Counted from the first letter of the stretch, positions 30,820 to 49,843 are shown. The stretch: DNA of 64,000 bases from Tissierellia bacterium (GCA_036720245.1 DAIMNI010000001.1:33053-97052), one strand, 5' to 3'. The notes: a model not told the origin generated them from the letters alone. Numbers and translations: made by a program.

Positions 30820-30929
30820 TATATAATATTTATAAAGTTGGCTGGCATCTTTTTTTAAAGAGCTGGACAGAATAAATAGAACAAAAAATAACGACTGGTA
30901 TCCGAAAGGAACTAGAGCGGAGGGATAAT

Positions 30930-31685
30930 ATGATTAAAGAAGGAAAGAAATTATCTGTAAGAAAAATGGCTGTTGTAGGTGTATTAGGTGGCCTATCCAT
31001 AGCCTTAGGCTTGACACCTTTGGCTTTTATTCCTGTAGGCCCTACTAGAGCAACTATAATGCATATACCTGTAATTATAGGTGCAATATTAGAAGGACCT
31101 ATAGTAGGAGGATTAATAGGTTTAATATTTGGGTTATCTAGCATGTTTCAGGCAGCTACTAACCCAACTCCTGTATCCTTTATATTTTTAAATCCATTAG
31201 TATCAGTATTACCTAGAGTATTAATTGGAATTGTAGCCCATTATGTATATAAGGGGGCTAAAGATTTAGGTGAAAATAAAATTCTATGGATATTTAGATT
31301 ATTATGGATAGGAATGATTTCTTATTTATTCTATGGAATATATAATGGAATTAAATTAAATAATGGAATGGGAACAATATTTATAAATATTATTTTAATA
31401 GCTTTAACTTTAGCATTTGGAATTTATGGTCAGAAAAAATTAAAAGGCAAAGCTATTCCAGTAACCATAGCAGCAATTTTAGGAACTCTAACTAATACAA
31501 TAGGAGTTTTATCTATGGTGTACTTCTTATATGCAGAAAAATTTGTTGAAAGCCTTGGGCAAAATCCAGATATGGCAGGGAAGATTATATTTGGAATTGG
31601 AATAACAAATGGAATTCCAGAAATTATAATAGGAACTATAATAGTTACCAATGTAGTAGCTGCATTAAATAATAGAGTAAAATAG
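30930..31685 (+). CDS. ECF-transporter substrate-specific (S) component, pantothenate-type suggested by context only
   Basis: Six-TM small membrane protein ([20 protein letters not shown]...[17 protein letters not shown]). It lies immediately upstream of coaX. Confidence 0.6.
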
Positions 31686-34983: not shown

Positions 34984-36456
34984 GTGTCAGAAGACAATCT
35001 TAATGAAATGCTTATGATGAGAAGGGAAAAATTAGAAGAGTTAAAGGAAATGGGGGAAAACCCCTTTCTAATAGAAAAGTACGATTGTACTCATCATAGT
35101 AGCACAATAAAGGAAAATTTTGAAGAATTAGAAGGAAAAACTGTATCAGTTGCAGGGAGGATAATGTCTAGAAGAGGTCATGGTAAAGTTAATTTTATGG
35201 ATCTTCAAGACAGTCAAGGAAAAATTCAATTATTTGTTCAAATGAATGCACTAGGAGAAGAAGCCTATAATAAATTACATTTATTAGATTTAGGAGATAT
35301 TGTAGGGGCAAAGGGAGAAGTATTTAGAACTAAAACAGGCGAAGTATCTATAAGGGTAAAAGAATTAAAATTACTTACAAAATCCTTACAAATATTACCT
35401 GAAAAGTTCCATGGTTTGAAGGATCAAGATTTAAGATATAGGCAAAGATATGTAGATTTAATAGTAAATCCAGAAGTAAAAGAAACTTTTATACTTAGAT
35501 CTAAAATAATAAAAGCTATAAGGGAATATCTAGATAATAGAGGTTTTCTAGAAGTAGACACACCAATATTAAACACTATATCAGGTGGAGCTACTGCTAG
35601 ACCATTTATCACTCATCACAATACGCTAGACATTGATATGTACTTACGTATAGCTAATGAATTGTACTTAAAAAGGCTAATAGTAGGTGGTTTTGATAAG
35701 GTATATGAAATGGGTAGAATGTTTAGAAATGAAGGTATGAGTCCTAAACATAATCCAGAATTTACTAACATTGAGCTATATCAAGCCTATGCAAATTATG
35801 AAGATATGATGGAGCTTACAGAAGAACTAGTAGCTTATGTAGCGGAAGAAACACTAGGTTCACCAAAAATAGAATATCAAGGAACTGAAATAGACCTAAC
35901 TCCACCTTGGAGAAGGATCACTATGATAGATTTAGTAAAAGAATATACTGGAGTAGATTTTAACACTATAGATTCTGACGAAGAAGCTAGGGAAATTGCT
36001 AAGGCCAAAGGCTTAGAAATAGACGCAGGAATGAAAAGGGGCAATATAATTAATGAAATGTTTGAAGAATTTTGTGAAGTTCATTTAATTCAGCCAACTT
36101 TTGTAACCCATTATCCTGTAGAAGTTTCTCCATTAGCAAAAAGAAATGCTAAAGACCCAAGATTAACCAATAGGTTTGAAGCTTTTATGAATTCTTGGGA
36201 AATAGCCAATGCATATAGTGAATTAAATGACCCAATAGATCAAAAAGAAAGATTTAAAGAACAAGAAGCACAAAGGGAAGCAGGAGACAGCGAAGCCCAT
36301 ATGATGGACTTAGACTTTGTAAATGCACTAGAAGTAGGCCTACCACCTACAGGAGGCTTAGGAATAGGTATAGATAGATTAATAATACTTTTAACAAATC
36401 AACCAAGTATTAGAGATGTACTTCTATTCCCAACTATGAAACCAGTAGAAGAATAG
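34984..36456 (+). CDS. lysS: lysine--tRNA ligase (class II)
   Basis: GTG start. OB anticodon-binding domain and class II motifs ([34 protein letters not shown]). Confidence 0.95.
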
Positions 36457-36458
36457 AT

Positions 36459-36504
36459 TTAAAAAGATGGCAAGGGGACGTTTTGATTGCCATCTTTTTT
36501 TAAA
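36459..36504 (+). terminator. lysS intrinsic terminator = copy 1 of a 46-bp perfect direct repeat
   Basis: ttaaaaagatggcaaggggacgttttgattgccatctttttttaaa. Stem agatggcaa/ttgccatct plus T7. An identical copy lies at 42807-42852. Confidence 0.85.
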
Positions 36505-36559
36505 TTGTACAAACTCTAAAAGTAAGTAAAACACACAAATTGAAATAGTTTAACTTCAT

Positions 36560-36587
36560 AAAAACGGGCTTTAAATAGCCCGTTTTT
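36560..36587. terminator. bidirectional-looking hairpin terminator
   Basis: aaaaacgggct-ttaaat-agcccgttttt. Confidence 0.55.
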
Positions 36588-36799
36588 GTATTGGGGCTTA
36601 ATCATAAATAGTTCAATATTTCCAGTTTAATTCGAATGGAAAAAACTTAAAGGAAAAGGTTTTTTAAAAATAATGTGTTATAATTATATTTAAGAAATAC
36701 AGGAAGTTCAATAAAAAGTTATTATAATTGAGTAAAGAATAATAAGGTTAGAAAATTGGAATAGTTCATTATTTCAATTTTGACCAAGGAGGAAATTCT

Positions 36800-38908
36800 A
36801 TGCAGCTCGATAAAAGATGTATAGCAATTTTGCAATATTTAAGAGAAAAAAAGGATTTTGTCAATATAGAAACTCTAGCAGAAACTTATTCTGTTGTTGA
36901 TAGAACCATTAGATATGATATTGATAAAATTGAAAAGTTTCTTGTAAAGAATGGATTTGATTATTTAGATAGGGAATATGGGAAAGGCGTAAGATTAAAA
37001 AATAGTAAAGGTTTAGAAGAGTTCATAGATAAATTTGTAAATACAGAGACCCCTTATAGATATAACTATTCTAAGGAGGAAAGACAAAAGATAATTATTC
37101 TGCAATTGCTTCAATCTAATGAAGCCATGCAGATATCTAATTTTGAGAAGAGGTTAAATATATCCAGGAATACAGTACTTAAGGAGCTGGATATAGTAGG
37201 AAAATGGCTAGAAGAAAAAGAATTACGACTTATAAGAAAACCAAGAATTGGATTATATATTGAAGGAAGTGAAATAAAAAAGAGAAAGGCAATAGCAGAT
37301 ATTGTTTCTAAAACTATAGATACTGAAGAAATAATTAATTATTTGGGCAATAAGATTGCTATAAATAAAATCAATAATTTTCAGCTTGAAACTCTTTTTT
37401 CAGAAATAGATTTAGAATTTCTCAATACTTTAATAAATTATGCAGAAAATGAATTAAATAGAAGGTTTAGCGATGAGGCATATACCAATTTAATAACCCA
37501 TATTTCAATAATGATAAAAAGGATACAATTAGGTAAAAAAATATATATTCCCGATACCAACTATGAATATATTCAAAATACAGAAGAGTATACGATATCT
37601 AAAGAAATGGTAGAAAGAATTGAGAAAAAGTTCAGTATAGCTGTGCCTGAAGAAGAAGTAGAGTATATTGCTCTTCATCTACTAGGAGCAAAATCATTAG
37701 AATTCAGAGATGTAGAAAAAGACGATCTTTATAATGTTGTTGAAACCATGACCTTAGAAATAGAAGATATATATAATGTAGTATTTACAAATAGGGAGAG
37801 GATAATAGAGGATCTGGTAGTTCACTTAAGGCCTACTATATATAGAATAAAGTTTGATTTAAAACTATATAATCCCTTATACGATAGCATAGTGGAAAAC
37901 TATAAAGAATTATTTGATAATACGAAGTTTGTTTTAAGACATTTAGAAAGATATATAGGAAAAGAAATAGGAGAACATGAAATATCTTATGTTACTTTGC
38001 ATTTTGGGGCAGCATTAAAAAATTCTTCCAATAGGGAAAAGACAAGGCCAAAGGTAATAGTGGTTTGTAGTACTGGTATAGGTACTTCAAAGATGGTAGC
38101 TACACAGATTAGTGAAAGATATGATATGGAGATAGTAGATACATTGTCTCTTAGGAGTTTGAAAAATTACACTGGAGACTATGACTATATAATTAGCACT
38201 ATAGATATACCTGATTTAGAGCCTTCAGAGTATATAAAGGTCAGTTCATTAATGTTAAAGAAAGATTTTGATGAGCTAGAGAAACATTTTAATCCAATAT
38301 ATGCTGAACCTAGTAAAAATGATGATACTTTAGTTATTAAACTAATGAATATTATAGATAAATATACCATTATAAAGGATAGGGAAAGACTAGAATATGA
38401 ACTTCTATACGAGATAAAAGAACATAGGAAGCCTATGCTTTATGAAAGGAGAACTTATATGTTAAAGGATTTGCTTAAAAGAGATGTAATTGAATTGAAT
38501 GTTGAATGTAAAGATTGGAAAGAAGCCATATTGAAAGGGAGTCAAATCTTAATTACTAAAGGATTTATTGAAGAAAGCTATACTAAAGCAATATTTAAAA
38601 GTTTCGAGGAAAATGGTCCCTATATGGTAATAGCACCTGGTATTGTCCTTGCTCATTCTAGACCTGAAGATGGAGTTAATAGAGTATGTATGAGTTTGAT
38701 TACTTTAAAAGAGGGAATAAACTTTGGCAATGAAAGTAACGACCCAGTAAGGCTGATAGTTACCTTTGGTGCAATAGATAGCAAAAGTCATTTAAAAGCT
38801 TTATCACAATTGGTGGAATTATTTATGAATGATAAGGATATTAATAAAATCATATCTTCAACCACTAAAGATGATGTGCTAGATGTAATTTATAAATATT
38901 CAAAGTAA
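36800..38908 (+). CDS. PRD-containing PTS regulator (MtlR/LicR architecture: HTH-PRD-PRD-EIIB-like-EIIA)
   Basis: 702 aa. N-terminal wHTH domains and two PRD regions (LITHISIMIKR.., VVHLRPTIYR..). An EIIB-like block KVIVVCSTGIGTSKM. A C-terminal domain collinear with my recollection of E. coli UlaC (GPYMVIAPGIVLAHSRPEDGV ... NDPVRLIVTFGAID). Confidence 0.8.
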   Translation: MQLDKRCIAILQYLREKKDFVNIETLAETYSVVDRTIRYDIDKIEKFLVKNGFDYLDREYGKGVRLKNSKGLEEFIDKFVNTETPYRYNYSKEERQKIIILQLLQSNEAMQISNFEKRLNISRNTVLKELDIVGKWLEEKELRLIRKPRIGLYIEGSEIKKRKAIADIVSKTIDTEEIINYLGNKIAINKINNFQLETLFSEIDLEFLNTLINYAENELNRRFSDEAYTNLITHISIMIKRIQLGKKIYIPDTNYEYIQNTEEYTISKEMVERIEKKFSIAVPEEEVEYIALHLLGAKSLEFRDVEKDDLYNVVETMTLEIEDIYNVVFTNRERIIEDLVVHLRPTIYRIKFDLKLYNPLYDSIVENYKELFDNTKFVLRHLERYIGKEIGEHEISYVTLHFGAALKNSSNREKTRPKVIVVCSTGIGTSKMVATQISERYDMEIVDTLSLRSLKNYTGDYDYIISTIDIPDLEPSEYIKVSSLMLKKDFDELEKHFNPIYAEPSKNDDTLVIKLMNIIDKYTIIKDRERLEYELLYEIKEHRKPMLYERRTYMLKDLLKRDVIELNVECKDWKEAILKGSQILITKGFIEESYTKAIFKSFEENGPYMVIAPGIVLAHSRPEDGVNRVCMSLITLKEGINFGNESNDPVRLIVTFGAIDSKSHLKALSQLVELFMNDKDINKIISSTTKDDVLDVIYKYSK

Positions 38909-38951
38909 GAGATTTGGTAGTATTAAGTAGCATTTTTAAGGAGGGGATTTA

Positions 38952-39953
38952 ATGAAGAAGATTGCTTTAATTATAAGTGGAGGTGATGGAGCAGGAATAA
39001 ATTGTACAATAGGGGCAATTGCAGAAAGTAAAAAATATGAATTAATGGGATTTAACGATTCATTCGATGGAATAATAAGTAACGATAGTATAAGGCTTAA
39101 ATCTAGTTTCATGGAAAATAAGTATCTAGATGGAAAACAAGTAATAAGGACTTCTAGGAGTAAGCTTCCACGTACTCAAAAAGGAATTGATAAAATTAAA
39201 GAGTCATTACACAGCAAAGATATTGATGCTTTAATAATATGTGGAGGCAATGGTTCTTTGGTATCAGCTAAAAAGCTATTTGATAATGGAATCAATACTA
39301 TATATGTACCTATGACAATAGATAATGATGTAAATTATTCTTCATATTCCATAGGATATGATACAGCATTAAATAATATCTTAAATACAATTAAAGGATT
39401 AGAAGATACCTCAGCTAATATGCCTGGTAGGATATTTATGGTTGAGGTATTAGGAGGAAATAGTGGTCATCTTGCTTTAGAAAGTGGCTTAGCAGGGTTT
39501 GCTGATTTAATTATTATTCCAGAATTTTCTACAGACTATGATGATATAGCAAATGCTGTAACAAATAAATTAAAAAATAAGAACTCGCTTATAATTATTT
39601 GTTCAGAATCAGCATATGAAGAAAAAAACTATGAAATAGGTAATCAAGGTATATCCTTGGCTATAGGGAAAATAATACAATCTAAAACAGGCATAAGAGT
39701 AAGGCATACTATTATGGGATTTAATATAAGATCTGGCAGACCTACAGAGAGAGATGCATTAATTGCAACATTAATGGGTCATAAGTGCAAAACTATGATA
39801 GAAAATGATGAATATGGTGAAATGATCTCTTATAAAAATGGGAAAATAGAAGGTATAGATTTCGAAATAATTGAGCCTTCGCAAATAAAAAAGTTGGATG
39901 AAACTCAATTGCTAGTTGCCAAAGATAGAAAAATGATAATAGGAGGAATATAA
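38952..39953 (+). CDS. PfkA-family ATP-dependent sugar-phosphate kinase (6-phosphofructokinase-like)
   Basis: IISGGDGAGIN, ICGGNGS, PMTIDNDV, VEVLGGNSGHLAL. The substrate is not assignable from sequence. Confidence 0.7.
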   Translation: MKKIALIISGGDGAGINCTIGAIAESKKYELMGFNDSFDGIISNDSIRLKSSFMENKYLDGKQVIRTSRSKLPRTQKGIDKIKESLHSKDIDALIICGGNGSLVSAKKLFDNGINTIYVPMTIDNDVNYSSYSIGYDTALNNILNTIKGLEDTSANMPGRIFMVEVLGGNSGHLALESGLAGFADLIIIPEFSTDYDDIANAVTNKLKNKNSLIIICSESAYEEKNYEIGNQGISLAIGKIIQSKTGIRVRHTIMGFNIRSGRPTERDALIATLMGHKCKTMIENDEYGEMISYKNGKIEGIDFEIIEPSQIKKLDETQLLVAKDRKMIIGGI

Positions 39954-40244
39954 ATGTTAAAAATTTTAGTTGTATGTGGGGCTGGATTAGGTAGTAGTTT
40001 TGCATGCCAGATGACCGTAGAAAGTGTACTAAAGGATTTAAATGTTGAAGCAAAGGTTGACCATAGTGATATTTCATCCGCAGCAGGAACAAAGGCTGAT
40101 ATAGTTATGGCTGCCAGTAATTTTGAAAAGCAGTTCGAAAGATATGATATGAAGGCAAAAACCATATTTTTAAAACGTTTAGTAGATAAGAATGAAATAA
40201 AGGAAAAACTTACCCCAGTGCTAAAAGAAATGGGAGAAATTTAA
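39954..40244 (+). CDS. PTS EIIB component (ascorbate/galactitol-type)
   Basis: MLKILVVCGAGLGSSF active-site Cys loop. 96 aa. Confidence 0.85.
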   Translation: MLKILVVCGAGLGSSFACQMTVESVLKDLNVEAKVDHSDISSAAGTKADIVMAASNFEKQFERYDMKAKTIFLKRLVDKNEIKEKLTPVLKEMGEI

Positions 40245-40266
40245 AAAATAGAAAGGATGGGACAAG

Positions 40267-41547
40267 ATGAAAGCTGTTAATTTTATTATAAATAATATAC
40301 TCACACAAGCCTCTATTACTATAGCATTAATAGCGATGCTAGGATTGATGTTACAAAAGAAAAAGTTTGGTGAAGTTTTGTCGGGCACATTTAAAACTTT
40401 GCTAGGTTTTATGGTATTATCCGCTGGATCAGGTATTATAGTTGAGTCCTTAGTATACTTTGGAGAAATATTTACTACTGGATTTGGTATGCAAGGTATA
40501 ATTCCTTCTATAGAAGCAATAAATGGTCAAGCTATGAATGAATTAGGACTAGGTAATGCCATAGCATTAACATTTTTAGCTATTTTTGTAGTAAATATAA
40601 TTATTGCTAGATTTACTAGGTTCAAATATATCTTTCTAACAGGGCAAGCTATCTTATGGATGGCTACTATGACAACTATATTTGGAAGTTTTGCTGGATT
40701 AGAAGGGGCAACATTAATTATTGTAGGTGGTATTATAGGTGGTATATTTGCAGTAGCAATGCCAGCTATAGCTCAACCTATAGTTAGAAAAATTACTGGC
40801 TCAGATGATATTGCATTGGGACACTTTTGTACTATAGGATATATGTTTACAGCTTTTATATCAAAATTAGTTGGCGATAGTTCTAAATCAACAGAAGATA
40901 TTAATTTGCCTAAAGGATTTGAATTTTTACAAGACACATATCTTTCAGTTGGAATAGTAATGATAATATTATTTATGGTTACTGCAGCTTTTGCAGGTGC
41001 AGAACCAGTAGCTGAGATGGCAGGTAATACAAATTATATGGTATATGCATTTTTAAAGGCAATGCAGTTTGTAGTTGGAACATATGTATTATTATCAGGC
41101 GTAAGATTATTACTTGCAGAAATAGTTCCTGCATTTAGAGGAATAGCTTTAAAGGTTATACCTAATGCTAAACCTGCATTGGACTGTCCTGTATTATTCC
41201 CATATGCACCTAATGCTGTTACAATTGGATTTATTACAACAACAATTGGTTCAGTAATAGCAATGATTGTGCTACCATTTTTTTCACTACCTATGTTATT
41301 ACCAGGTATGCTGTCTAACTTCTTTGCAGGGGGTACAGCTGGGATATTCGGTAATGCAACTGGAGGTAGGAGAGGTGCTGTAATTTCTGGTATAGCACAT
41401 GGATTTTTTATAACATTATTACCTGCACTTTTGGTAAATGTTTTTAATAGTATGGGATTTGTTAATGCAACAGCAACAGATGTCGATACGGTTGTAGTAG
41501 CATTGATATATGCTTGGATATTAACTCCAATATTAAAAAGAAGTTAA
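40267..41547 (+). CDS. PTS EIIC component, UlaA/SgaT (ascorbate) family
   Basis: 426-aa polytopic protein. N-terminal FIINNILTQASITIALIAMLGL and overall layout fit the SgaT/UlaA family. Adjacent to the matching EIIB. Confidence 0.8.
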   Translation: MKAVNFIINNILTQASITIALIAMLGLMLQKKKFGEVLSGTFKTLLGFMVLSAGSGIIVESLVYFGEIFTTGFGMQGIIPSIEAINGQAMNELGLGNAIALTFLAIFVVNIIIARFTRFKYIFLTGQAILWMATMTTIFGSFAGLEGATLIIVGGIIGGIFAVAMPAIAQPIVRKITGSDDIALGHFCTIGYMFTAFISKLVGDSSKSTEDINLPKGFEFLQDTYLSVGIVMIILFMVTAAFAGAEPVAEMAGNTNYMVYAFLKAMQFVVGTYVLLSGVRLLLAEIVPAFRGIALKVIPNAKPALDCPVLFPYAPNAVTIGFITTTIGSVIAMIVLPFFSLPMLLPGMLSNFFAGGTAGIFGNATGGRRGAVISGIAHGFFITLLPALLVNVFNSMGFVNATATDVDTVVVALIYAWILTPILKRS

Positions 41548-41566
41548 TTAGGGAGATGGTGATAAT

Positions 41567-41947
41567 ATGTCCTTCTTAAATAAAATATTTAAATTTAATA
41601 AGAAGACAAATGATAGTATAGTTAATACGAAGGATATTTATGTTAATAAGGAAAATGATACTGCAGATTCCTTAGTTGATGATGTTAAGATAGATTTAGA
41701 TTCAATTCTTGATAGTGCTAAAAAGTTTGAAAATGATGGAGACATTGAAAAGGCTATAGAGGAATATGAGAAATATGTATTAAATGCAAAACAATTAGGC
41801 CCTGTGTATGGGAAGTTGATGAATTTATATAATGCTAAATTAAAAGAAGCAAGAGAAAGCGGCAATGATGAAGAAATACAGTATTATTTAAATAAAATTG
41901 ACGCATTGATGCAGAGATCCAAGGATCTTCTTAGGGGTAGAATATAG
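41567..41947 (+). CDS. hypothetical soluble acidic/helical protein inside the PTS operon
   Basis: 126 aa with a good RBS (GGGAGATGG). No recognised motif beyond one TPR-like helix pair (GDIEKAIEEYEKYVLNAKQLG). Confidence 0.5.
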   Translation: MSFLNKIFKFNKKTNDSIVNTKDIYVNKENDTADSLVDDVKIDLDSILDSAKKFENDGDIEKAIEEYEKYVLNAKQLGPVYGKLMNLYNAKLKEARESGNDEEIQYYLNKIDALMQRSKDLLRGRI

Positions 41948-41962
41948 GAGGTATTAGATATT

Positions 41963-42802
41963 ATGTATACTAATTTAATTCAATTATTTAACAAGTATAG
42001 GGGAAAAACAGGAATAGGTGCATTTAACTTGCATTGTATGGAAATGTTGCCTTACATGATAAAAGGTGCAAAAAAAGCAGATAGTCCCATAATCATACAA
42101 ACTTCACAAGGTACAGCTGAATATGTAGGTTTAGAATGGTTAGTTAACAGTGTTAAACTGTATAGTGAATTATATGATATGGATATATGTTTACACTTGG
42201 ATCATTGTAAGGATATAGATTTTATTAAATGTGCTATTGATAAGGGCTATACTTCTGTAATGTACGATGGCTCAAACCTTCCAATAGAAGAAAACATTGA
42301 GAATACCAAAAAGGTTATTGCATATGCACATAGTAAAAATGTTTCTGTTGAAGGGGAAATAGGAAATATAGGTGGCTCAGAAGATGGAGTAGTAAGTAAA
42401 GATAATATTGGAAGCTATACTAGACTAGAAGATGCAATAAGATTTACCAATGAGACAAAAGTAGATGCATTAGCCATAGCTATTGGAACAGTACATGGTC
42501 AATATAGATCTAAAGCTAATATAAACTATGATCTATTAGATAGTATAGTAGACAATATCAGCGATATTGGATTGGTATTGCATGGAGGGACTGGAGTTTC
42601 CAATACTGATTTTAAAAAATGTGCTGAAAAAGGTATGATGAAATTTAATGTTGGGACTGAATTGAATAAAGGATATATAGATGAGATTACCGGATCACTC
42701 TCTACGGCAACACCTACAACATCCCTAAGAAAGTTATTTTCTCCAGCAAATGAAAAGATAGAAAATATAGTATTTGAAAGATGCAATCTATTAAAGATAT
42801 AA
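41963..42802 (+). CDS. class II ketose-bisphosphate aldolase (FBA/tagatose-bisphosphate aldolase family)
   Basis: GAFNLHCMEM, CLHLDHC (Zn His), GEIGNIGG, AIGTVHG, LVLHGGTG. Confidence 0.85.
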   Translation: MYTNLIQLFNKYRGKTGIGAFNLHCMEMLPYMIKGAKKADSPIIIQTSQGTAEYVGLEWLVNSVKLYSELYDMDICLHLDHCKDIDFIKCAIDKGYTSVMYDGSNLPIEENIENTKKVIAYAHSKNVSVEGEIGNIGGSEDGVVSKDNIGSYTRLEDAIRFTNETKVDALAIAIGTVHGQYRSKANINYDLLDSIVDNISDIGLVLHGGTGVSNTDFKKCAEKGMMKFNVGTELNKGYIDEITGSLSTATPTTSLRKLFSPANEKIENIVFERCNLLKI

Positions 42803-42806
42803 AACA

Positions 42807-42852
42807 TTAAAAAGATGGCAAGGGGACGTTTTGATTGCCATCTTTTTTTAAA
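42807..42852 (+). terminator. copy 2 of the 46-bp terminator repeat
   Basis: Identical 46/46 to 36459-36504. It begins 5 nt after the aldolase stop codon. Confidence 0.85.
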
Positions 42853-42859
42853 AAAAGAC

Positions 42860-42888
42860 TTGAAAAAAGTAAATTATAGTGGTATACT
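42860..42888 (+). promoter_or_regulatory. sigma-A promoter for the pyrP leader
   Basis: TTGAAA (42860-42865), 17 nt, TATACT (42883-42888), with TGg just upstream of the -10. Confidence 0.6.
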
Positions 42889-42910
42889 ATTTTAGAAAAT
42901 AATAAGGAAT

Positions 42911-43075
42911 CTTTAAATCAGTCCAGAGAGGCTGGCAAGATTGTGGGAATAATTATACTGATTATGTATAAAACTTCTTGCTGTCTGCAAGAAGTTTTTT
43001 TATGCAATCACAGCTTGCCTTTAAATCAGTCCAGAGAGGCTGAAAAGGAGATAGGACTCTCCTTAAATAAAAGGA
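42911..43075 (+). promoter_or_regulatory. two tandem PyrR-binding attenuator elements
   Basis: The 24-nt unit ctttaaatcagtccagagaggctg occurs at 42911-42934 and 43019-43042. It contains the PyrR loop consensus ARUCCAGAGAGGYU. The first is followed by the terminator aaacttcttgc-tgtc-tgcaagaagttt+T7 (42971-43001), the second by the hairpin aaggag-ataggact-ctcctt. Confidence 0.8.
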
Positions 43076-43084
43076 GGTTTTTTT

Positions 43085-44329
43085 ATGACAGAAAATATTA
43101 TGAAAAATAACACAGAAACTAGATTATTGGAAGGTTCAAAAAAGACTATATTGGCACTTCAACATTTAATAGCCATGTTTGGTGCTACAGTATTGGTACC
43201 TATACTAACAGGCTTTGATCCTTCAGTAGCATTGTTTACAGCAGGACTTGGCACATTAATTTTTCATCTATGCACTAAAGGTAAAGTACCAGTTTTCTTA
43301 GGCTCATCCTTTGCCTTTATACCAGTGATTTTAAAGGTAAGTGAAATTTATGGCGGAGATTTAGCCTATGCTCAAGGTGGAATGGTAGTAGCAGGTTTAA
43401 TATATATACTTTTTTCCTTTATCATTAAAAAAGTAGGCGTAGAGAAAATCCAAAAATATCTTTCACCTCAAGTAATAGGGCCAATGATAATAGTAATAGG
43501 AATGAATTTAATACCTACAGCTTTTGGCATGGCCAGTGGAAACTTTATAATAGCAGGAATTACTTTAGGAGTTACACTTTTGGTAAACTTCAAGGCCAAG
43601 GGATTTTTCAAACAATTATCCATTTTGACAGGTGTTATAGTAGGATATTTAATCTCCTTGAAAATGGGGATGGTAGGCACAGCAGCAATAAAAGCAGCAC
43701 CAATTTTAGCAATACCAGCCTTTAGATTACCAAAGTTTGATATAGGAGCAATTGCAATTATAGCACCAGTAGTATTAGCAGTATTTATGGAGCATTTAGG
43801 AGATATAACTACAAATGGACAAGTAGTAGGGAAAAACTTTATAGAAGACCCAGGCTTAAATAGAACTTTATTAGGGGACGGATTGGCAACCACTGTAGCA
43901 GCATTTTTAGGAGGACCTGCCAATACAACCTATGGAGAAAATACAGGAGTATTGGCCCTAACCAAAAACTACGATCCCTCTATATTAAGACTTGCAGCAG
44001 TATTTGCCATAGCACTAGGTTTTGTATCTAAAGTAGGTACAGTATTAACCACTATACCAGCCCCAGTTATGGGTGGCATAAGTTTAATGCTATTTAGTAT
44101 GATTTCCTTAATAGGTGTAAAAACCATAAAGACAAGTAAAGTTAAGTTTAACTGGAGAAATATAATTATTATGGGTAGTATATTATTAATAGGCCTAGGT
44201 AGCGGAATAATTGAAAGTAAATATGGTATAACAATAGGAATTCCAGTAAATGAAACAGTTAAAATATCAGGATTAAGTTTAGCGGCCATAGTGGGAATAG
44301 TTTTAAATGCAGTATTGAATAGAGAATAA
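43085..44329 (+). CDS. pyrP: uracil permease (NCS2 family)
   Basis: ALQHLIAMFGATVLVPILTGF..., 12-14 TM segments, NTTYGENTGVLALT motif. PyrR-controlled leader upstream. Confidence 0.9.
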   Translation: MTENIMKNNTETRLLEGSKKTILALQHLIAMFGATVLVPILTGFDPSVALFTAGLGTLIFHLCTKGKVPVFLGSSFAFIPVILKVSEIYGGDLAYAQGGMVVAGLIYILFSFIIKKVGVEKIQKYLSPQVIGPMIIVIGMNLIPTAFGMASGNFIIAGITLGVTLLVNFKAKGFFKQLSILTGVIVGYLISLKMGMVGTAAIKAAPILAIPAFRLPKFDIGAIAIIAPVVLAVFMEHLGDITTNGQVVGKNFIEDPGLNRTLLGDGLATTVAAFLGGPANTTYGENTGVLALTKNYDPSILRLAAVFAIALGFVSKVGTVLTTIPAPVMGGISLMLFSMISLIGVKTIKTSKVKFNWRNIIIMGSILLIGLGSGIIESKYGITIGIPVNETVKISGLSLAAIVGIVLNAVLNRE

Positions 44330-44388
44330 GATTTAGGTTTAATATCTGAAAATACGTGAAACTAAACTGCATATGAATTAATTATTAT

Positions 44389-44416
44389 AAAGATAGCCTT
44401 TAAGAGCTATCTTTTA
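44389..44416 (+). terminator. intrinsic terminator after pyrP
   Basis: aaagatagc-ctttaaga-gctatcttt followed by T. Confidence 0.6.
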
Positions 44417-44544
44417 ATATAAATATAATAATGGGGGGCAATATATTATTTTAACCTTTGCTGATACATAGACAAAAAGAAATTATTAAGATATTATATA
44501 ATTAAAAGAATATCTTATGATTAATATTTAGGATGGTGATGTCT

Positions 44545-45327
44545 ATGGATAATAAGGTGAAATCTTTTAAAAGGTGCAAAATTTTCAATGAGGACTGTAT
44601 AAATATACTTAAAACGATACCAGACAATACTATTGATTTAATTCTCGCAGATCCTCCATATAATATTAGCAAATATTCTACTGGAAATATCTCATTACCA
44701 AATAGGACACCATTAAATAATGATATTGCAAATTGGGATGACGTGGAAATAGATCCTTTTGATTTTATTGAAGATTTTAAACGAATATTAAAGCCTACAG
44801 GTAATATTTTCATTTTTACTAGTTATAATCAAATTGGAAAATGGCATGAGGCTTTTGATAGCGAATTTGATACTTTTCAATTTATGATTTGGCATAAAAC
44901 TAATCCTCCACCTAAAATTTACAAAAATGGCTTTTTAAATAGTTGTGAATTAATTATTTGTATGTGGAATAGGGGGCATACTTGGAATTTTACCTCCCAA
45001 AAAGAAATGCATAACTTTATAGAAACCCCTATATGTATGGGAAAGGAAAGGCTTAGGGATCCTAAGCATCCTACACAAAAACCTCTGAAGGTATTAGAGC
45101 ATATAATTAAAATAGCATCAAATGAAAATGATTTAGTATTTGATCCGTTTATGGGTGTTTGCTCAACAGGAATAGCGTCATTAAAATTAAATAGACTTTT
45201 TGCTGGTTGCGAAATTGATAAAAAGTATTTTGATGCTTCTGCAAAAAGGATTGAAAATTTTTATTTTTCTAAAGGACTAAATAACATAGTAAAGGAAGTA
45301 AATGAAGAATATAAATTAAATTGGTAA
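44545..45327 (+). CDS. beta-class DNA N6-adenine (or N4-cytosine) methyltransferase, M1 of the R-M block
   Basis: Motif IV ILADPPYNI lies near the N-terminus, and the AdoMet motif HPTQKPLKVLEHII...VFDPFMGVCSTG near the C-terminus (beta permutation, HinfI/CcrM-like). The start could be 44533, 44539 or 44545. Confidence 0.85.
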   Translation: MDNKVKSFKRCKIFNEDCINILKTIPDNTIDLILADPPYNISKYSTGNISLPNRTPLNNDIANWDDVEIDPFDFIEDFKRILKPTGNIFIFTSYNQIGKWHEAFDSEFDTFQFMIWHKTNPPPKIYKNGFLNSCELIICMWNRGHTWNFTSQKEMHNFIETPICMGKERLRDPKHPTQKPLKVLEHIIKIASNENDLVFDPFMGVCSTGIASLKLNRLFAGCEIDKKYFDASAKRIENFYFSKGLNNIVKEVNEEYKLNW

Positions 45328-45372
45328 TAATAAACAACCTAGCCCTTGTTAAGAGGCCAAGTTGTTTATTAT
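45327..45372. terminator. bidirectional hairpin between convergent M1 and R genes
   Basis: 12-bp stem ataataaacaac / gttgtttattat overlapping both stop codons. Confidence 0.55.
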
Positions 45373-47150
45373 ACTGCTTTTATTTGTTTCCAGCTACCTA
45401 TCATAGAATCTATATTTTTCTCCCATTCAGTAAATGTTTTATAATTGAAACTCGCATTATGGATACATTCTATAAGATCCTTAAAATCGTCAATATTTAA
45501 ATTATTGTCATAAATATATTGAATTATATTTATATACTGCTCTATAGTTATTGGAACTACAGGGACTGGTTTTCCAATCCAAGATTCCCTATTTAATATA
45601 AAAAATTGCCATATTGTTCTTACGTTCATTCTAGAGGATATAAAAATGCCTAGCACCTGTTTATCTTCATTTTTTTCTATAAATTTATAAACATGATCTA
45701 TTACAGATGAACCTTCGTGTTCCCATTGTCTAACCCCGGTCATTAATGATACCTCTGGTATTAAAATATAGCTATTTTTATATAATTCCATATCGGGAGT
45801 ATTTCCCCTTCCTGGTGCAAATGCCCTTGGGGTCAAATCATCTTCAATTTTAAAATTGCGTTTTACATGGTGTTCCCCATCTATAGCTACAAGGGATTTC
45901 CAAGTATTACATTCTAGCCATAAAGCAGCCATATCTTCATTACCAGCTAAAATATCTTGAAATTTTTCAATTATCCCGTTCCTTTCTTCACTTGTTTTTG
46001 AATAATGCTTAATAAATAATTCTTCATTTAACGATAATATTTTATCAGATATATCCATATCTAATTTCATTAAACTTTCCTTTTCGGCAATATCTAAAGT
46101 GCTCAATTTATTTAATTGATTTAAATGTTCAGTTGAGAGTAATTCTAAATCTTTCTTGTTGACTTTATCAATTTTATTTTTATATAAATTTAATTTATTA
46201 TTAACTATAAATTGAAGGTTATCCATGTTATCCCATGGTAATTCTAAATTATAGGGATTGCCATACCATTCCATGTATTGAATAAAATCTTTTTCTGTAT
46301 TGGGAACGAATTTATACTTATCTTGTAGAAGTTCTACTTTTAATTTTGCATGTTCAGGAATGAATATTTTGGTATAGTAGCCTCGACCTTTTTGGCTAAA
46401 TAAACTGGTATATTCTAGAGTTCTAAACAGGGAATCGGAATAGTCCCTATAATAGGTTTCGGGTTTATTTTTTATTTCGGGGAAATTTTTATTCATTATA
46501 TCTGTAAATATATAGGTAACTTTTTTGGTATTTAACTTATTATCTAGTTTTTCATATCTTTTTCGAAATTCATTTATTGAATCAACTGCTATATCTAATT
46601 TATCTATATGGTTACACATAAATAGGTATCCTATCTCATATTTGTTTAAGGTATCAAAATGTTTAAATATATTTAATATTAATTCCATAGGGAATACATA
46701 TATATTGCTGTTTTGATATTTTTTCGTTACAGCTGGGGATGGAAATTGCATCTTCAACAATATTTTTATAAGTAGATTTTCATCCATCTTATTATTTTTA
46801 ACTAACTCCCCTGTCTCTGTAATATTAATTTTACCACACTTATCTACATATCCTAGACCATAGAATTCGTATGTAGTTTTATCATTTCTGCCTGCTGATT
46901 CTGTCTCATTTATATCATTTTTACCTGATAAATAATCTTCGTAAGAAAAGTATTTTTCCTCTAATTCTTCCCAATGGGAATTATAGATGTACTTTCTTCT
47001 TATAGGATAAATAGTTTTATTATTAAAACTACTTATCTTATCTTCCGATTTATAATTCCAATTATGCCCTTCTAATTCAGCAAAATAGGGAAACCATTCA
47101 AAGGTTCTCAAAATACTCCTAGGCTTTGTTCGAAACCACCAAGAATTCAT
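45369..47150 (-). CDS. AlwI/BstNBI/PleI/MlyI-family type IIS restriction (or nicking) endonuclease
   Basis: 593 aa. It shares blocks with my recollection of N.BstNBI. N-terminal W..S/T..PRS....EG: here SWWFRTKPRSILRTFEWFPYFAELEG. Central LLKMQFPSP...LNKYEIGYLFMC. C-terminal catalytic block GNTPDMELYKNSYILIPEVSLMTGVRQWEHEGSSVIDH versus GNQPDMEIIYEDFIVLGEVTTSKGATQFKMESEPVTRH. Co-oriented just downstream of a methyltransferase. Confidence 0.7.
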   Translation of the reverse strand: MNSWWFRTKPRSILRTFEWFPYFAELEGHNWNYKSEDKISSFNNKTIYPIRRKYIYNSHWEELEEKYFSYEDYLSGKNDINETESAGRNDKTTYEFYGLGYVDKCGKINITETGELVKNNKMDENLLIKILLKMQFPSPAVTKKYQNSNIYVFPMELILNIFKHFDTLNKYEIGYLFMCNHIDKLDIAVDSINEFRKRYEKLDNKLNTKKVTYIFTDIMNKNFPEIKNKPETYYRDYSDSLFRTLEYTSLFSQKGRGYYTKIFIPEHAKLKVELLQDKYKFVPNTEKDFIQYMEWYGNPYNLELPWDNMDNLQFIVNNKLNLYKNKIDKVNKKDLELLSTEHLNQLNKLSTLDIAEKESLMKLDMDISDKILSLNEELFIKHYSKTSEERNGIIEKFQDILAGNEDMAALWLECNTWKSLVAIDGEHHVKRNFKIEDDLTPRAFAPGRGNTPDMELYKNSYILIPEVSLMTGVRQWEHEGSSVIDHVYKFIEKNEDKQVLGIFISSRMNVRTIWQFFILNRESWIGKPVPVVPITIEQYINIIQYIYDNNLNIDDFKDLIECIHNASFNYKTFTEWEKNIDSMIGSWKQIKAV

Positions 47151-47173
47151 AAGTATACCACCTTTCTCTAGTA

Positions 47174-48298
47174 TTAATAATTGGTAATTAATAAATGTTC
47201 AGTAGATCTATTATTTCGATTTTGGAAACTTACTAAATATTTTTTATCAAAAGCCAATACATTGAAACCTTTATTTAAATACAGTTCTCTAATTAGTTTT
47301 GTGCTTTTTATTACTAGCATGAATTTGGCTCCTGTATTATATAAATAGTTTGCAAGTCTCATTTGATCACTAGGGGTAAAGGACATTCCTACATAATCAG
47401 AAAACTCACTATCATATGGCGGATCTAGGAATATAAAATCATCTTTACTAGGATTTATAGTTTCAAAAAAATCTTCGAAATCTAGATTGTATATTTCTGT
47501 TTTTTGTAAATGTTGTACTAAACCAGGGCTTTTTAAATAATCAATTTTTTTGCCAAAGTCCTTTCTATTATAGGACATTCCCCCATATGGCACATTAAAT
47601 TTCCCCTGCTTATTATATCGAAACATACTAGCGTAACAGTATTCCCTAATGAAATAAAAAATAGCTGTATGAAAAGGCAAGCTTATATTATACTTTTCTG
47701 CATTATTATATAAATGTCTAAAGTGCATATAATAGGCTGACTTGAATGCTGTCTCAATATTATTAACTACATCTTCATCTGGTAGTTTTCCTCGCTCCTG
47801 CTCAATTTTTTTCATTCTTCCAGTTCTTCTAATTAAATTTTTCTTTATTTCTTTTATAAAATTTTCTATATTAATATTAAATGATGTAGATAGAACACCA
47901 TTAAATTCATGAGCATTATTTAAAATAAATTCTACGATAAAATCATCTAATTCAGATTTATTTATTTTATCACAGGAATAATGCTTATATTTATCCACAA
48001 ATAGTTGAGAATGTTTTTCCACAATTTTCTCTAAGGCCTTCCAATTATAATATATGGCATCGATTTTATCATAAAATTCTTGATTTCCTTCTTGTAACAT
48101 TTTATATAAATTAATTAATTCCTCAGATTTATCATTAATAATTATATCCTTATTTTCTATAGAAAGGTATACTGCTCCCCCACCTACAAAAGGCTCTAGA
48201 TATCTATTATAGTTTTCTGGCACATTTGGGAGTATGTGAACTAATTCTTGCTCCTTTCCACCAGCCCATTTAATAAAAGGGGTTAATCTATCTTGCAT
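47174..48298 (-). CDS. alpha-class (Dam/D12-type) DNA N6-adenine methyltransferase, M2 of the R-M block
   Basis: TPFIKWAGGKEQEL, EPFVGGGAVY (FxGxG) and FIFLDPPYDSEF (motif IV). 374 aa, longer than Dam, with a central insertion. Confidence 0.85.
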   Translation of the reverse strand: MQDRLTPFIKWAGGKEQELVHILPNVPENYNRYLEPFVGGGAVYLSIENKDIIINDKSEELINLYKMLQEGNQEFYDKIDAIYYNWKALEKIVEKHSQLFVDKYKHYSCDKINKSELDDFIVEFILNNAHEFNGVLSTSFNINIENFIKEIKKNLIRRTGRMKKIEQERGKLPDEDVVNNIETAFKSAYYMHFRHLYNNAEKYNISLPFHTAIFYFIREYCYASMFRYNKQGKFNVPYGGMSYNRKDFGKKIDYLKSPGLVQHLQKTEIYNLDFEDFFETINPSKDDFIFLDPPYDSEFSDYVGMSFTPSDQMRLANYLYNTGAKFMLVIKSTKLIRELYLNKGFNVLAFDKKYLVSFQNRNNRSTEHLLITNY

Positions 48299-48527
48299 AT
48301 TTTCACTCCTTATTTTTTATAATTAAATTATAACATAGAGATTGAAATACACAAAATAATTATATTAACTGGGTCTTATAGATAATATGGTAAACTAGTG
48401 AAGACTAAAGTAAAACTTGAGGGAAAAAATCACTAACTCAACTATCACTTGCTTGAAAATAAAATAATAAATCTGCTATTATAAGATTATAGGAGACCCT
48501 AAAAATTATATGAAAGGGAGAATGCAG

Positions 48528-49157
48528 ATGTTCGATACGCAGAAGGTGGGAAGGAAAATAGCAAAGATGCGAAAAGCTAAAAATATGACTCAAATGGAAT
48601 TGGCAGATACTATGAGTGTTAGTTATCAAGCAATTAGTAATTGGGAAAGGGGAAATTCTATGCCAGATATTTCAAAGTTACCAGATCTTGTTGAGATATT
48701 TGGTTGCAGTATAGATGAACTTCTCTCTAGTAGCGAAGAGACAGAACTATTAAATAATATAATTTTAGGAAACACGGAGGAATATATAAAAGATAATCCA
48801 GTGGCTATAGACACTGTATCTAATGCAGCACCTATACTTAAACCAAAACAAACAGAGGAGGTTGTGGAAATGGTATTAAATGAAAATACAATAAGTATAT
48901 ATGAACTAATGGAAATAGCCCCCTTTGTAGGGGAAGAATATTTGGATAAATTAGTGGAAAAGGTTGAGATCGTAGAAGATATATATGAATTATCAGCATT
49001 GATGCCATTTCTAAGTGAGGAAGCCTTAGGGAAATTGGCAAAACGTGTAGAACACATAGAAGATATAAATGATATAATGGTTTTAGCCCCTTTTTTAAGT
49101 GAGGAAACTTTAGCTGAATTGGCAATGAATATAGGAAAGGGGAAAAAAGAAAAATAG
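48528..49157 (+). CDS. XRE-family HTH regulator with triplicated about 28-aa C-terminal repeat
   Basis: HTH KMRKAKNMTQMELADTMSVSYQAISNWERGNSMPDISKLPDLVEIFGCSIDELL. This is followed by repeats ..IYELMEIAPFVGEEYLDKLVEKVE / IEDIYELSALMPFLSEEALGKLAKRVE / IEDINDIMVLAPFLSEETLAELAMNI. The ATG at 48528 has the best RBS spacing. Confidence 0.8.
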   Translation: MFDTQKVGRKIAKMRKAKNMTQMELADTMSVSYQAISNWERGNSMPDISKLPDLVEIFGCSIDELLSSSEETELLNNIILGNTEEYIKDNPVAIDTVSNAAPILKPKQTEEVVEMVLNENTISIYELMEIAPFVGEEYLDKLVEKVEIVEDIYELSALMPFLSEEALGKLAKRVEHIEDINDIMVLAPFLSEETLAELAMNIGKGKKEK

Positions 49158-49239
49158 AACTCTGTGATAAAGGGTATTTTAGAGATTACAACGGATGTAT
49201 TAGCACCATTTTTGTAAAAAAATTTATGAATAAAAAGGT

Positions 49240-49268
49240 TTGACATAATTTTACTATAATTGTATAAT
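49240..49268 (+). promoter_or_regulatory. consensus sigma-A promoter driving the repeat array and toxN
   Basis: TTGACA (49240-49245), 17 nt, TATAAT (49263-49268), with a TG extended -10 at 49261-49262. Confidence 0.75.
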
Positions 49269-49297
49269 AATATTAAGGATAGGAAACTATCAAATAA

Positions 49298-49377
49298 AAA
49301 GAGGAGACCCCATGCCTTAAGTTGGGATTATTTAAAGAGGAGACCCCATGCCTTAAGTTGGGATTTGAAAAAGAGGA
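49298..49377 (+). ncRNA. ToxI-like type III antitoxin RNA: 2.2 tandem 36-nt repeats
   Basis: Unit aaagaggagaccccatgccttaagttgggatt+4 nt starts at 49298 and 49334 (32/36 identical). A third unit starts at 49370 (aaagagga) and runs into the terminator stem. The period is exactly 36 nt. Confidence 0.7.
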
Positions 49378-49409
49378 TGAGGTAGTTTTACTACCTCATC
49401 TAGTCTTTT
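49376..49409 (+). terminator. hairpin (leaky terminator) between antitoxin repeats and toxin ORF
   Basis: Perfect 10-bp stem gatgaggtag-tttta-ctacctcatc, then tagtctttta (weak U tract). Confidence 0.65.
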
Positions 49410-49423
49410 AAAGGGTGATAAAT

Positions 49424-49843
49424 ATGGACAAAATTAGGTTTTTTAGAATAGATTTAGATTACATAAAATATCTTTGGAATTATGATAATAGAGTGCAGTA
49501 CAATATAAATGAATCTAATTCTTATAATAAAAGGAGACCATATATAGGGATTGTATTTAGGATAGGCAGTTTTAAATATTTTGCCCCATTAGAACATCCT
49601 AGAAAAAGCCATTTAAAATTAAAAAGCAACCCTCACATTTTGAAAATAAATAATGGGCGATATGGTTTAATTGCTTTTAACAATATGATACCAGTAAATG
49701 ATTCTGAACTAATAAGCTTTAATTTTAAAGATGAGGATTTAGCTTACCAAAAGATATTAATAAACCAATTTATTTTTTGTGATAATAACAAAAAACATAT
49801 TAGTTACCAAGCACAGAATACATATAACAAGGTTACGGTGTAA
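49424..49843 (+). CDS. toxN: ToxN/AbiQ-family type III toxin endoribonuclease (interrupted by in-frame TAA; frame continues to 49975)
   Basis: MDKIRFFRIDLDYIKYLWNYDNRV...RRPYIGIVFRIGSFKYFAPLEHPRKSH...YGLIAFNNMIPV...LINQFIF parallels my recollection of ToxN (FYTISSKYIEYLKEFDDKV...KAFIGIVLEIQGHKYLAPLTSPKKWH...LGLINLKFMIPI...LYKQLQFI). Confidence 0.75.
   Translation: MDKIRFFRIDLDYIKYLWNYDNRVQYNINESNSYNKRRPYIGIVFRIGSFKYFAPLEHPRKSHLKLKSNPHILKINNGRYGLIAFNNMIPVNDSELISFNFKDEDLAYQKILINQFIFCDNNKKHISYQAQNTYNKVTV

Follow-up and report, generated by a model that had tools for sequence, protein, structure and literature searches.

In the 64,000-nt stretch of DNA analysed here (the window), which derives from an uncultured Tissierellia bacterium of biogas and fermenter metagenomes (GCA_036720245.1, DAIMNI010000001.1:33053-97052), the segment at positions 36459-42852 is probably, a view held with modest confidence, a lineage-specific cargo of a recombination hotspot between lysS, which encodes lysine-tRNA ligase, and the uracil permease gene pyrP. 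The cargo would be a complete, self-regulated sugar operon of the phosphotransferase system (PTS), bounded by a duplicated terminator, a 46-bp palindrome termed T46 (TTAAAAAGATGGCAAGGGGACGTTTTGATTGCCATCTTTTTTTAAA). The cassette is an ordinary accessory-gene islet in which only the exact duplication of the terminator is unusual. Hotspots free of mobile elements, whose content changes through recombination at the core genes on either side, have been described (PMC5635113), and the concept of a minimal mobile element is presented in a further source, which credits it to Saunders & Snyder 2002 (PMC3787668).

The genomic context of lysS in related species, the closest of which have LysS proteins 94% and 91% identical to that of the source organism, carries much of this argument. 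The gene order dus-hyp-greA-lysS is kept in ~80 relatives, and in none of them does the cassette follow lysS. Downstream of lysS there is instead an rRNA operon in more distant relatives, a membrane protein gene on the reverse strand in contig L003 (contigs are cited by L numbers), a capsule locus in L098/L099, and a tRNA-Ile(GAT) gene followed by a peptidase gene and a capsule locus in L100. When the right flank was used for comparison (the closest PyrP homologues are 92-93% identical), lysS and pyrP were found adjacent to one another in L112-L114 and L237, with 230-430 bp between them; this gap contains tRNA-Ile(GAT) as well as a terminator and a promoter, and it leads directly into the PyrR leader of pyrP. 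In these related species the two genes thus stand side by side with no cassette between them, which marks the cassette as an insertion into the lysS-pyrP interval. In L238-L240, the promoter that lies between cpsD-cpsB and pyrP is homologous to that of pyrP in the window, and the end of L100 is 97.6% identical to L238 over cpsD-cpsB; these contigs therefore describe one species with the order lysS, terminator, tRNA-Ile, peptidase, capsule locus (~10 kb), pyrP promoter and pyrP. The same flanks thus enclose tRNA-Ile only, tRNA-Ile plus the peptidase and capsule locus, or the PTS cassette, and because three species hold three different cargoes, the lysS-pyrP interval is a conserved but replaceable slot.

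The tRNA-Ile(GAT) gene that lies directly after lysS in these relatives has its own strong promoter (L100 11589-11665, L112 4192-4268, L237 ~155-232) and is absent from the window, in which no tRNA gene of any kind was found. In the alleles that contain the tRNA only, the pyrP leader starts within 10-45 nt of it, so pyrP may be co-transcribed with the tRNA there.

The edges of the novel DNA are sharp. At the nucleotide level, homology to the window breaks off in every relative at 36453-36465, at the lysS stop codon, and on the right it resumes at 42859, 7 nt past the second copy of T46, which defines 36458-42858 as lineage-specific and corresponds exactly to T46, a spacer, the cassette and T46 again. 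Because homology ends at 36457 and resumes at 42859, both T46 copies lie inside the lineage-specific DNA. A lysS terminator of the form TGAGTCAGAGG...CTTTGACTCA is common to four relatives (L003, L098/L099, L100/L101 and L237), L112-L114 have a third type, and no relative's type resembles T46. Since the relatives carry other terminators, T46 is not the ancestral lysS terminator of the lineage, and its candidacy as the native one was rejected on the evidence of the hairpin that the four relatives share. These data bear on a first-pass annotation of the window, which had proposed that the cassette was inserted at, or duplicated together with, the lysS terminator and had suggested a search of relatives for an empty site with a single 46-bp copy. 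An insertion between lysS and pyrP is borne out, but T46 as the original lysS terminator is not; likewise, intervals without the cassette do exist, but they contain tRNA-Ile(GAT), and among the relatives no lysS-pyrP interval with just one copy of T46 came to light.

The source species itself varies at the right flank of this interval. One allele (L088/L089; L088 1-300) agrees fully with the window from 42985 onwards and across pyrP, is ~85% identical to it at 42889-42984, and is unrelated upstream, so that the first PyrR attenuator is diverged and the promoter region unrelated while the pyrP coding sequence is identical. As read from this alignment, the pattern resembles that of a recombination breakpoint within the right flank; only the right side of the allele was recovered. 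Another contig, L093, starts inside the first copy of T46 and departs from the window sequence at 42957. The divergent part of L093 and the upstream 154 nt of L088 gave no match anywhere.

The two copies of T46 are identical at 46 of 46 positions, as the first-pass annotation had stated, and they are the only matches in the window when up to 3 mismatches are allowed; no match occurred in 100 dinucleotide-preserving shuffles of the window, and a loose blastn search detected no further related copy there. The repeat is exactly 46 bp long because the bases adjoining each copy differ, and its boundaries are also those of the palindrome. The RNA is predicted to fold into a 13-bp stem with a 13-nt loop and a U7 tail (-15.4 kcal/mol, z = -4.7), and at both sites the hairpin is preceded by an A-tract and followed by U7. 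Like other intrinsic terminators, T46 thus combines a stable stem-loop, an upstream A-tract and a U-tract with a position directly 3' of a stop codon at both sites; it differs from them in that its 13-nt loop is unusually long and in that one terminator is reused verbatim at the ends of two adjacent operons. On this structural evidence, T46 is plausibly an intrinsic terminator, and possibly a bidirectional one, as the opposite strand folds equally well. A simple terminator scan missed it because the loop exceeds the limit of the scan, and a search of Rfam with this region, including a second hairpin (T2) in the spacer, returned nothing near the gathering score.

Independent assemblies argue that the duplication is real. 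L001, L002 and L236 contain the lysS-T46-regulator junction, and the aldolase-T46-pyrP junction occurs in L084-L087, L091, L092, L095 and L096; L097 carries the aldolase-T46 junction and ends at 42880, short of the pyrP leader. Several samples and several assemblers are represented among these contigs. Because both junctions recur in this way, the duplication of T46 is not an assembly artefact, an explanation that was rejected also on account of contigs that span both copies. The population is near-clonal, with a handful of single-nucleotide polymorphisms across >10 kb, and all strain-level contigs of the source species carry the cassette, none showing an excised site. No lysS-T46-pyrP junction was found among the contigs retrieved for LysS (4), PyrP (10) and the aldolase (13), which represent 17 distinct places. 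A single contig, L094, contains an aldolase-T46-spacer-regulator junction of the kind expected of a circle or a tandem copy. This contig is multiply chimeric and of low coverage (2.5x), with a 45-nt inverted fold-back at position 1963 and unrelated sequence at either end; it is weak evidence, and for these reasons it was set aside as proof that a circle or tandem copy exists. Fold-backs or unrelated ends occur in several of the public contigs (L094 1919-2026, the ends of L236, and L093 6492-6628), and a junction seen in a low-coverage contig of these datasets is not to be trusted unless reads confirm it.

Coordinates of the features discussed are collected in the table below. The content given by the first-pass annotation, a regulator, a kinase, the PTS enzymes IIB (EIIB) and IIC (EIIC), an open reading frame and an aldolase, was upheld by Pfam and NCBIfam matches for all but the open reading frame (orf126), which belongs to no known family. 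All components of a Gat/Asc-family PTS operon are there, namely an SgaT/UlaA-type EIIC, an EIIB, a PRD regulator, a kinase and an aldolase; no separate gene for enzyme IIA (EIIA) is found in the operon, where the sole EIIA domain is the C-terminus of the regulator. The cassette genes have GC contents of 0.28-0.34, third-position GC contents (GC3) of 0.16-0.25 and codon-usage distances of 0.10-0.25, all inside the range of core genes in the window. The contrast in composition between cassette and flanks that the first-pass annotation had suggested looking for is therefore lacking, and a foreign composition was rejected. Either the donor resembled the host in composition or the cassette is a long-standing resident.

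Features of the lysS-pyrP interval and its flanks, in window coordinates
Feature	Coordinates	Strand	Description	Evidence
lysS	34984..36456	+	lysine-tRNA ligase; conserved left flank; stop TAG at 36454-36456	NF001756, 738 bits
T46 copy 1	36459..36504	+	palindromic, putative intrinsic-terminator hairpin; 2 nt past lysS stop	exact repeat, RNA fold
Spacer, 102 bp	36505..36606	+	holds T2, a predicted stronger bidirectional terminator hairpin at ~36560-36587	fold -19.9 kcal/mol
Cassette upstream region	36607..36799	+	conserved extended -10 TGTTATAAT at 36676-36684	homology to L104
PRD-type transcriptional regulator	36800..38908	+	702 aa; HTH-Mga-PRD-PRD-EIIB-EIIA	Pfam PRD, PTS_EIIA_2, HTH_11, Mga, PTS_IIB
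Sugar-phosphate kinase	38952..39953	+	PfkA family	PF00365, 233 bits; NF002872, 252.7 bits (cutoff 253)
PTS EIIB	39954..40244	+		PF02302
PTS EIIC	40267..41547	+	SgaT/UlaA (EIIC-GAT) family	NF009551, 709.6 bits (cutoff 657)
orf126	41567..41947	+	126 aa; without known family	no Pfam or NCBIfam hit
Class II ketose-bisphosphate aldolase	41963..42802	+	stop TAA at 42800-42802	PF01116, 283 bits; TIGR00167, 228 bits (cutoff 215.6)
T46 copy 2	42807..42852	+	4 nt past aldolase stop; putative terminator of cassette operon	exact repeat, RNA fold
pyrP promoter	42860..42888	+	TTGAAA-17-TATACT with extended TG; starts conserved right flank	
PyrR-controlled leader	42906..43084	+	kept in all relatives	RF00515 at 42906-43003, 63.8 bits
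pyrP	43085..44329	+	uracil permease; conserved right flank	TIGR00801, 314.7 bits (cutoff 291.8)

One gene of the operon, orf126, is nearly an orphan. Among 5.8 billion proteins, orf126 has one other cluster only (at the level of 90% clusters; P0122, 60% identical), and the contigs that encode it (L104-L111) contain the same six genes in the same order, with protein identities of 60% to 88%. At the nucleotide level L104 is 78.4% identical to the window over 36607-42804, where homology stops; at the left end it begins at 36607 with an upstream region 69% identical over 194 nt. This only other known copy of the cassette adds a deoC-type gene after the aldolase, has a different terminator, and is located between ypeB and a racemase gene plus genes for lysine fermentation; neither T46 nor any other flanking direct repeat was found around it. 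Because homology to L104 is confined to 36607-42804, the ancestral cassette unit includes the promoter region at 36607-36799 and excludes both T46 copies and the 102-bp spacer, which has no match in the relatives or in L104. T46 as a part of the ancestral cassette is accordingly not supported.

More distant operons indicate that the cassette belongs to a recurrent, uncharacterised operon type, whose nearest known counterparts are PRD-regulated Gat/Asc-family PTS operons of Firmicutes that include a class II aldolase. For example, an operon on the Enterococcus raffinosus megaplasmid NZ_CP081847.1, with the order regulator-IIB-IIC-'TPR'-aldolase-kinase, shares the architecture of the regulator, the EIIB, the SgaT-type EIIC, a small helical protein and the class II aldolase, in the same order, and has ~68% nucleotide identity over the IIC and aldolase genes. 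Its kinase, in contrast, is of the AAA_33 type and follows the aldolase, whereas that of the cassette is of the PfkA family and precedes EIIB. The E. raffinosus 'TPR' protein, which occupies the same position between EIIC and aldolase, has 42% identity to the C-terminal half of orf126, so orf126 may be an uncharacterised component of this type of PTS operon. Plasmid and phage collections yielded only distant EIIC and aldolase similarity, and nothing close to T46 was found in them.

The segment was compared with hotspot cargoes and with mobile DNA. Conserved lysS and pyrP flanks, three cargoes, the lack of mobility genes and an alternative allele with an apparent breakpoint in one flank are all shared with hotspots and minimal mobile elements; their cargoes, however, are not normally enclosed by long perfect direct repeats, and here there are two identical 46-bp hairpins. 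One example of such a hotspot cargo is the pneumococcal cps locus, which lies between dexB and aliA. As the first-pass annotation had noted, no recombinase is encoded in the unit, and neither there nor elsewhere in the window was there a gene for an integrase, recombinase, relaxase, excisionase or transposase, an IS200/IS605 or REP-associated tyrosine transposase (RAYT) gene (REP, repetitive extragenic palindromic), or any remnant of a mobile element. By direct reading, the unit ends have no inverted repeats of a transposon or insertion sequence, and to our knowledge a 46-bp duplication is far longer than the target-site duplications of known transposases. An integron cassette finds no more support, with no IntI in the window and, again by direct reading, no RYYYAAC...GTTRRRY core motifs in T46.

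Flanking direct repeats are a feature of integrative elements, and here the repeats, identical at 46 of 46 positions, stand at the exact edges of the lineage-specific DNA. We consider it quite unlikely, nonetheless, that an integrative element, now decayed or non-autonomous and resembling a cis-mobilizable element (CIME), gave rise to the unit; in that case T46 would be the core of attL and attR, left by the site-specific integration of a circular element whose attP overlapped the operon terminator, and the integrase would have been lost or would act in trans. The 3' end of lysS is a known target of integrative and conjugative elements in streptococci, with direct repeats of 12-54 bp (PMC4701971), and CIMEs by definition keep attL and attR after loss of the integration genes (PMC5704250). 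The unit lies beside the lysS 3' end, its perfect repeats are of att-like length and fall within that range, its outer edges are the edges of novelty, it lacks an integrase as a CIME does, and L094 has the aldolase-T46-regulator junction expected of a circle. The repeat, however, starts after the lysS stop codon and includes no conserved 3' end of the gene; being wholly outside lysS, where relatives have different terminators, T46 would be a poor target for site-specific integration. Furthermore, integration and transfer genes have left no decayed remnants in the window, the cargo is a single metabolic operon, and no reliable circle is available given the chimeric, low-coverage state of L094. 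The core sites of tyrosine recombinases typically have spacers of 6-8 bp, and the 13-nt spacer of the T46 palindrome exceeds these.

It is improbable that T46 belongs to a dispersed, REP-like family of palindromic terminators, of this genome or of the donor's, whose members lie behind many genes, and that the cassette was moved by recombination between copies or by mobilisation of the HUH/RAYT type. Such a family would account for the coincidence of the repeat edges with those of the extended palindrome, and for two copies on the same strand, 2-4 nt past stop codons, as is often the case for REP-type elements. The first-pass annotation had itself named dispersal of the 46-mer over many loci as an outcome that would contradict its proposal, and none was detected in the window, in 1.13 Mb of relatives' loci or in two public collections. 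The window holds 2 copies only, even at loose thresholds, and the relatives' loci hold none; the exact 29-nt T46 hairpin had 0 hits in viral contigs (IMG/VR) and 0 hits in a searchable metagenome subset, which evidently lacks the source organism, given that the sequence is present in the JGI contig L091. A pattern restricted to the stem, with the loop left free, gave at least 120 hits, all of them unrelated hairpins with other loops and GC contents. Also improbable, in our assessment, is a broader proposal in which T46 is a cis-acting site, either att-like or a hairpin for an HUH or tyrosine enzyme, that serves a recombinase encoded elsewhere and makes the operon a non-autonomous, self-insulating mobile cassette bounded by hairpins, or in which an insertion resolved through a cruciform copied the entire terminator palindrome to either side of the incoming DNA.

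Two further accounts differ in where the block was put together. It is very improbable that the cassette stood at lysS-pyrP ancestrally and that the relatives have since lost it: its composition is indistinguishable from that of the host, but the tRNA-Ile arrangement and a lysS terminator of an older type are common to the lineages of three relatives, the only homologous cassette is at a different locus, and orf126 occurs in just two protein clusters of the entire collection searched. Unlikely, but better placed, is the construction of the whole T46-cassette-T46 block in another, unsampled lineage and its import by homologous recombination in lysS and pyrP, in which case no part of the repeat's history would have taken place at this locus in this lineage. 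Such an import is favoured by the exchangeable nature of the interval, which has a different cargo in each of three species, by the apparent breakpoint that the within-species allele shows in the pyrP leader, and by a pyrP promoter of the type found beside the capsule locus in L238. On the other hand, it shifts the origin of the duplication elsewhere, and no donor that carries T46 was found in any collection searched. Import of the whole block is compatible with the hotspot explanation that we favour and does not exclude it.

Under that hotspot explanation, the unit would not be an autonomous mobile element and would have been placed by host recombination, with the cargo of the interval exchanged by recombination in or beside its flanks, lysS and pyrP. 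The operon would have inserted, in some unsampled ancestor, at a single T46 located between lysS and the pyrP promoter, and the insertion would have duplicated the entire hairpin, as could happen through a staggered or cruciform-type break at the base of the palindrome that was then filled in. Duplication of the whole palindrome enters the model because the boundaries of the repeat are those of the palindrome. Judging from the sequence and predicted folds, copy 1 of T46, backed by T2, would stop lysS transcription ahead of the regulator gene, and copy 2 would stop transcription of the operon shortly before the -35 element of the PyrR-controlled pyrP promoter, which begins 7 nt beyond it and whose placement immediately after the second copy the first-pass annotation had recognised. 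Since transcription would be stopped on each side, the inserted operon would be transcriptionally insulated from both neighbours. The earlier suggestion that recombination between the repeats could delete the cassette precisely, and leave one terminator next to the pyrP promoter, agrees with their arrangement: 46 bp of perfect identity would probably be enough for rare RecA-dependent deletion to lysS-T46-pyrP promoter, or for tandem amplification. Among the contigs, no trustworthy product of deletion or tandem amplification was seen.

Several points weigh against this explanation. No relative or strain has a single T46 between lysS and pyrP, which leaves the pre-insertion state hypothetical, and we know of no standard bacterial insertion pathway with the 46-bp target duplication of a whole hairpin as a documented outcome. 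The right end of the inserted DNA, 4 nt past the aldolase stop codon, would have to be placed there by chance. In addition, at 13 nt the loop is longer than is usual for an intrinsic terminator, and the count of two T46 copies holds for the 64-kb window.

Beyond the interval itself, the window is made up of a conserved Firmicute region, glmU-prs-pth-mfd...spoIIE-tilS-hpt-ftsH...dus-greA-lysS. The pyrP leader has PyrR boxes at 42911-42939 and 43019-43047 (repeat family D8). The second box is followed by a hairpin that overlaps the ribosome-binding site of pyrP (43019-43084), downstream of the PyrR element called by Rfam, and this arrangement is kept in all relatives aligned, which suggests tandem control by attenuation and then a second checkpoint. 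In six relatives a pan motif RNA (RF01749; L005 5626-5710, L007, L009, L010, L012 and L015) was called upstream of ECF transporter-coaX genes; judged by gene order alone, its site corresponds to about 30830-30930 of the window, where the motif was not reported at the gathering threshold.

Directly after pyrP, a defence island at 44338-50132 encodes an N6/N4 methylase, an AlwI-type restriction enzyme, a Dam-like methylase, a helix-turn-helix (HTH) protein, and ToxN with ToxI repeats. The island is missing in another strain of the same species, in which pyrP joins 50133 via 38 nt absent from the window (L086/L087), and in the relatives represented by L238/L239 only the HTH and ToxIN-like part follows pyrP. 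The ToxI array (49298-49369) has two 36-nt repeats in the window and three in L084, L085, L091 and L092, through a 36-nt insertion at 49352; comparison of these contigs indicates that the difference is copy-number variation in a near-clonal population. A terminator duplication like that of T46 was not found around the restriction-modification and ToxIN island, where a different repeat occurs: two 38-nt direct repeats, 92% identical, surround the HTH-ToxIN module (48258-48295 and 50120-50157). Each contains the opening 12 nt of the gene for the Dam-like methylase (ATGGGCTGGTGG, minus strand) together with its upstream region, and the pair suggests another duplication during assembly of the island.

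If the lysS-pyrP segment is indeed a hotspot cargo, it provides one more case of accessory metabolic genes that enter a core-gene hotspot without the machinery of a mobile element. What sets this case apart would be the presence of the same terminator on both sides, which would leave lysS and the PyrR-controlled pyrP undisturbed. The perfect 46-bp repeats would also make this operon a candidate for reversible loss or amplification. Its significance would be larger only if T46 turned out to act as a recombination site or to result from an insertion mechanism that duplicates hairpins.

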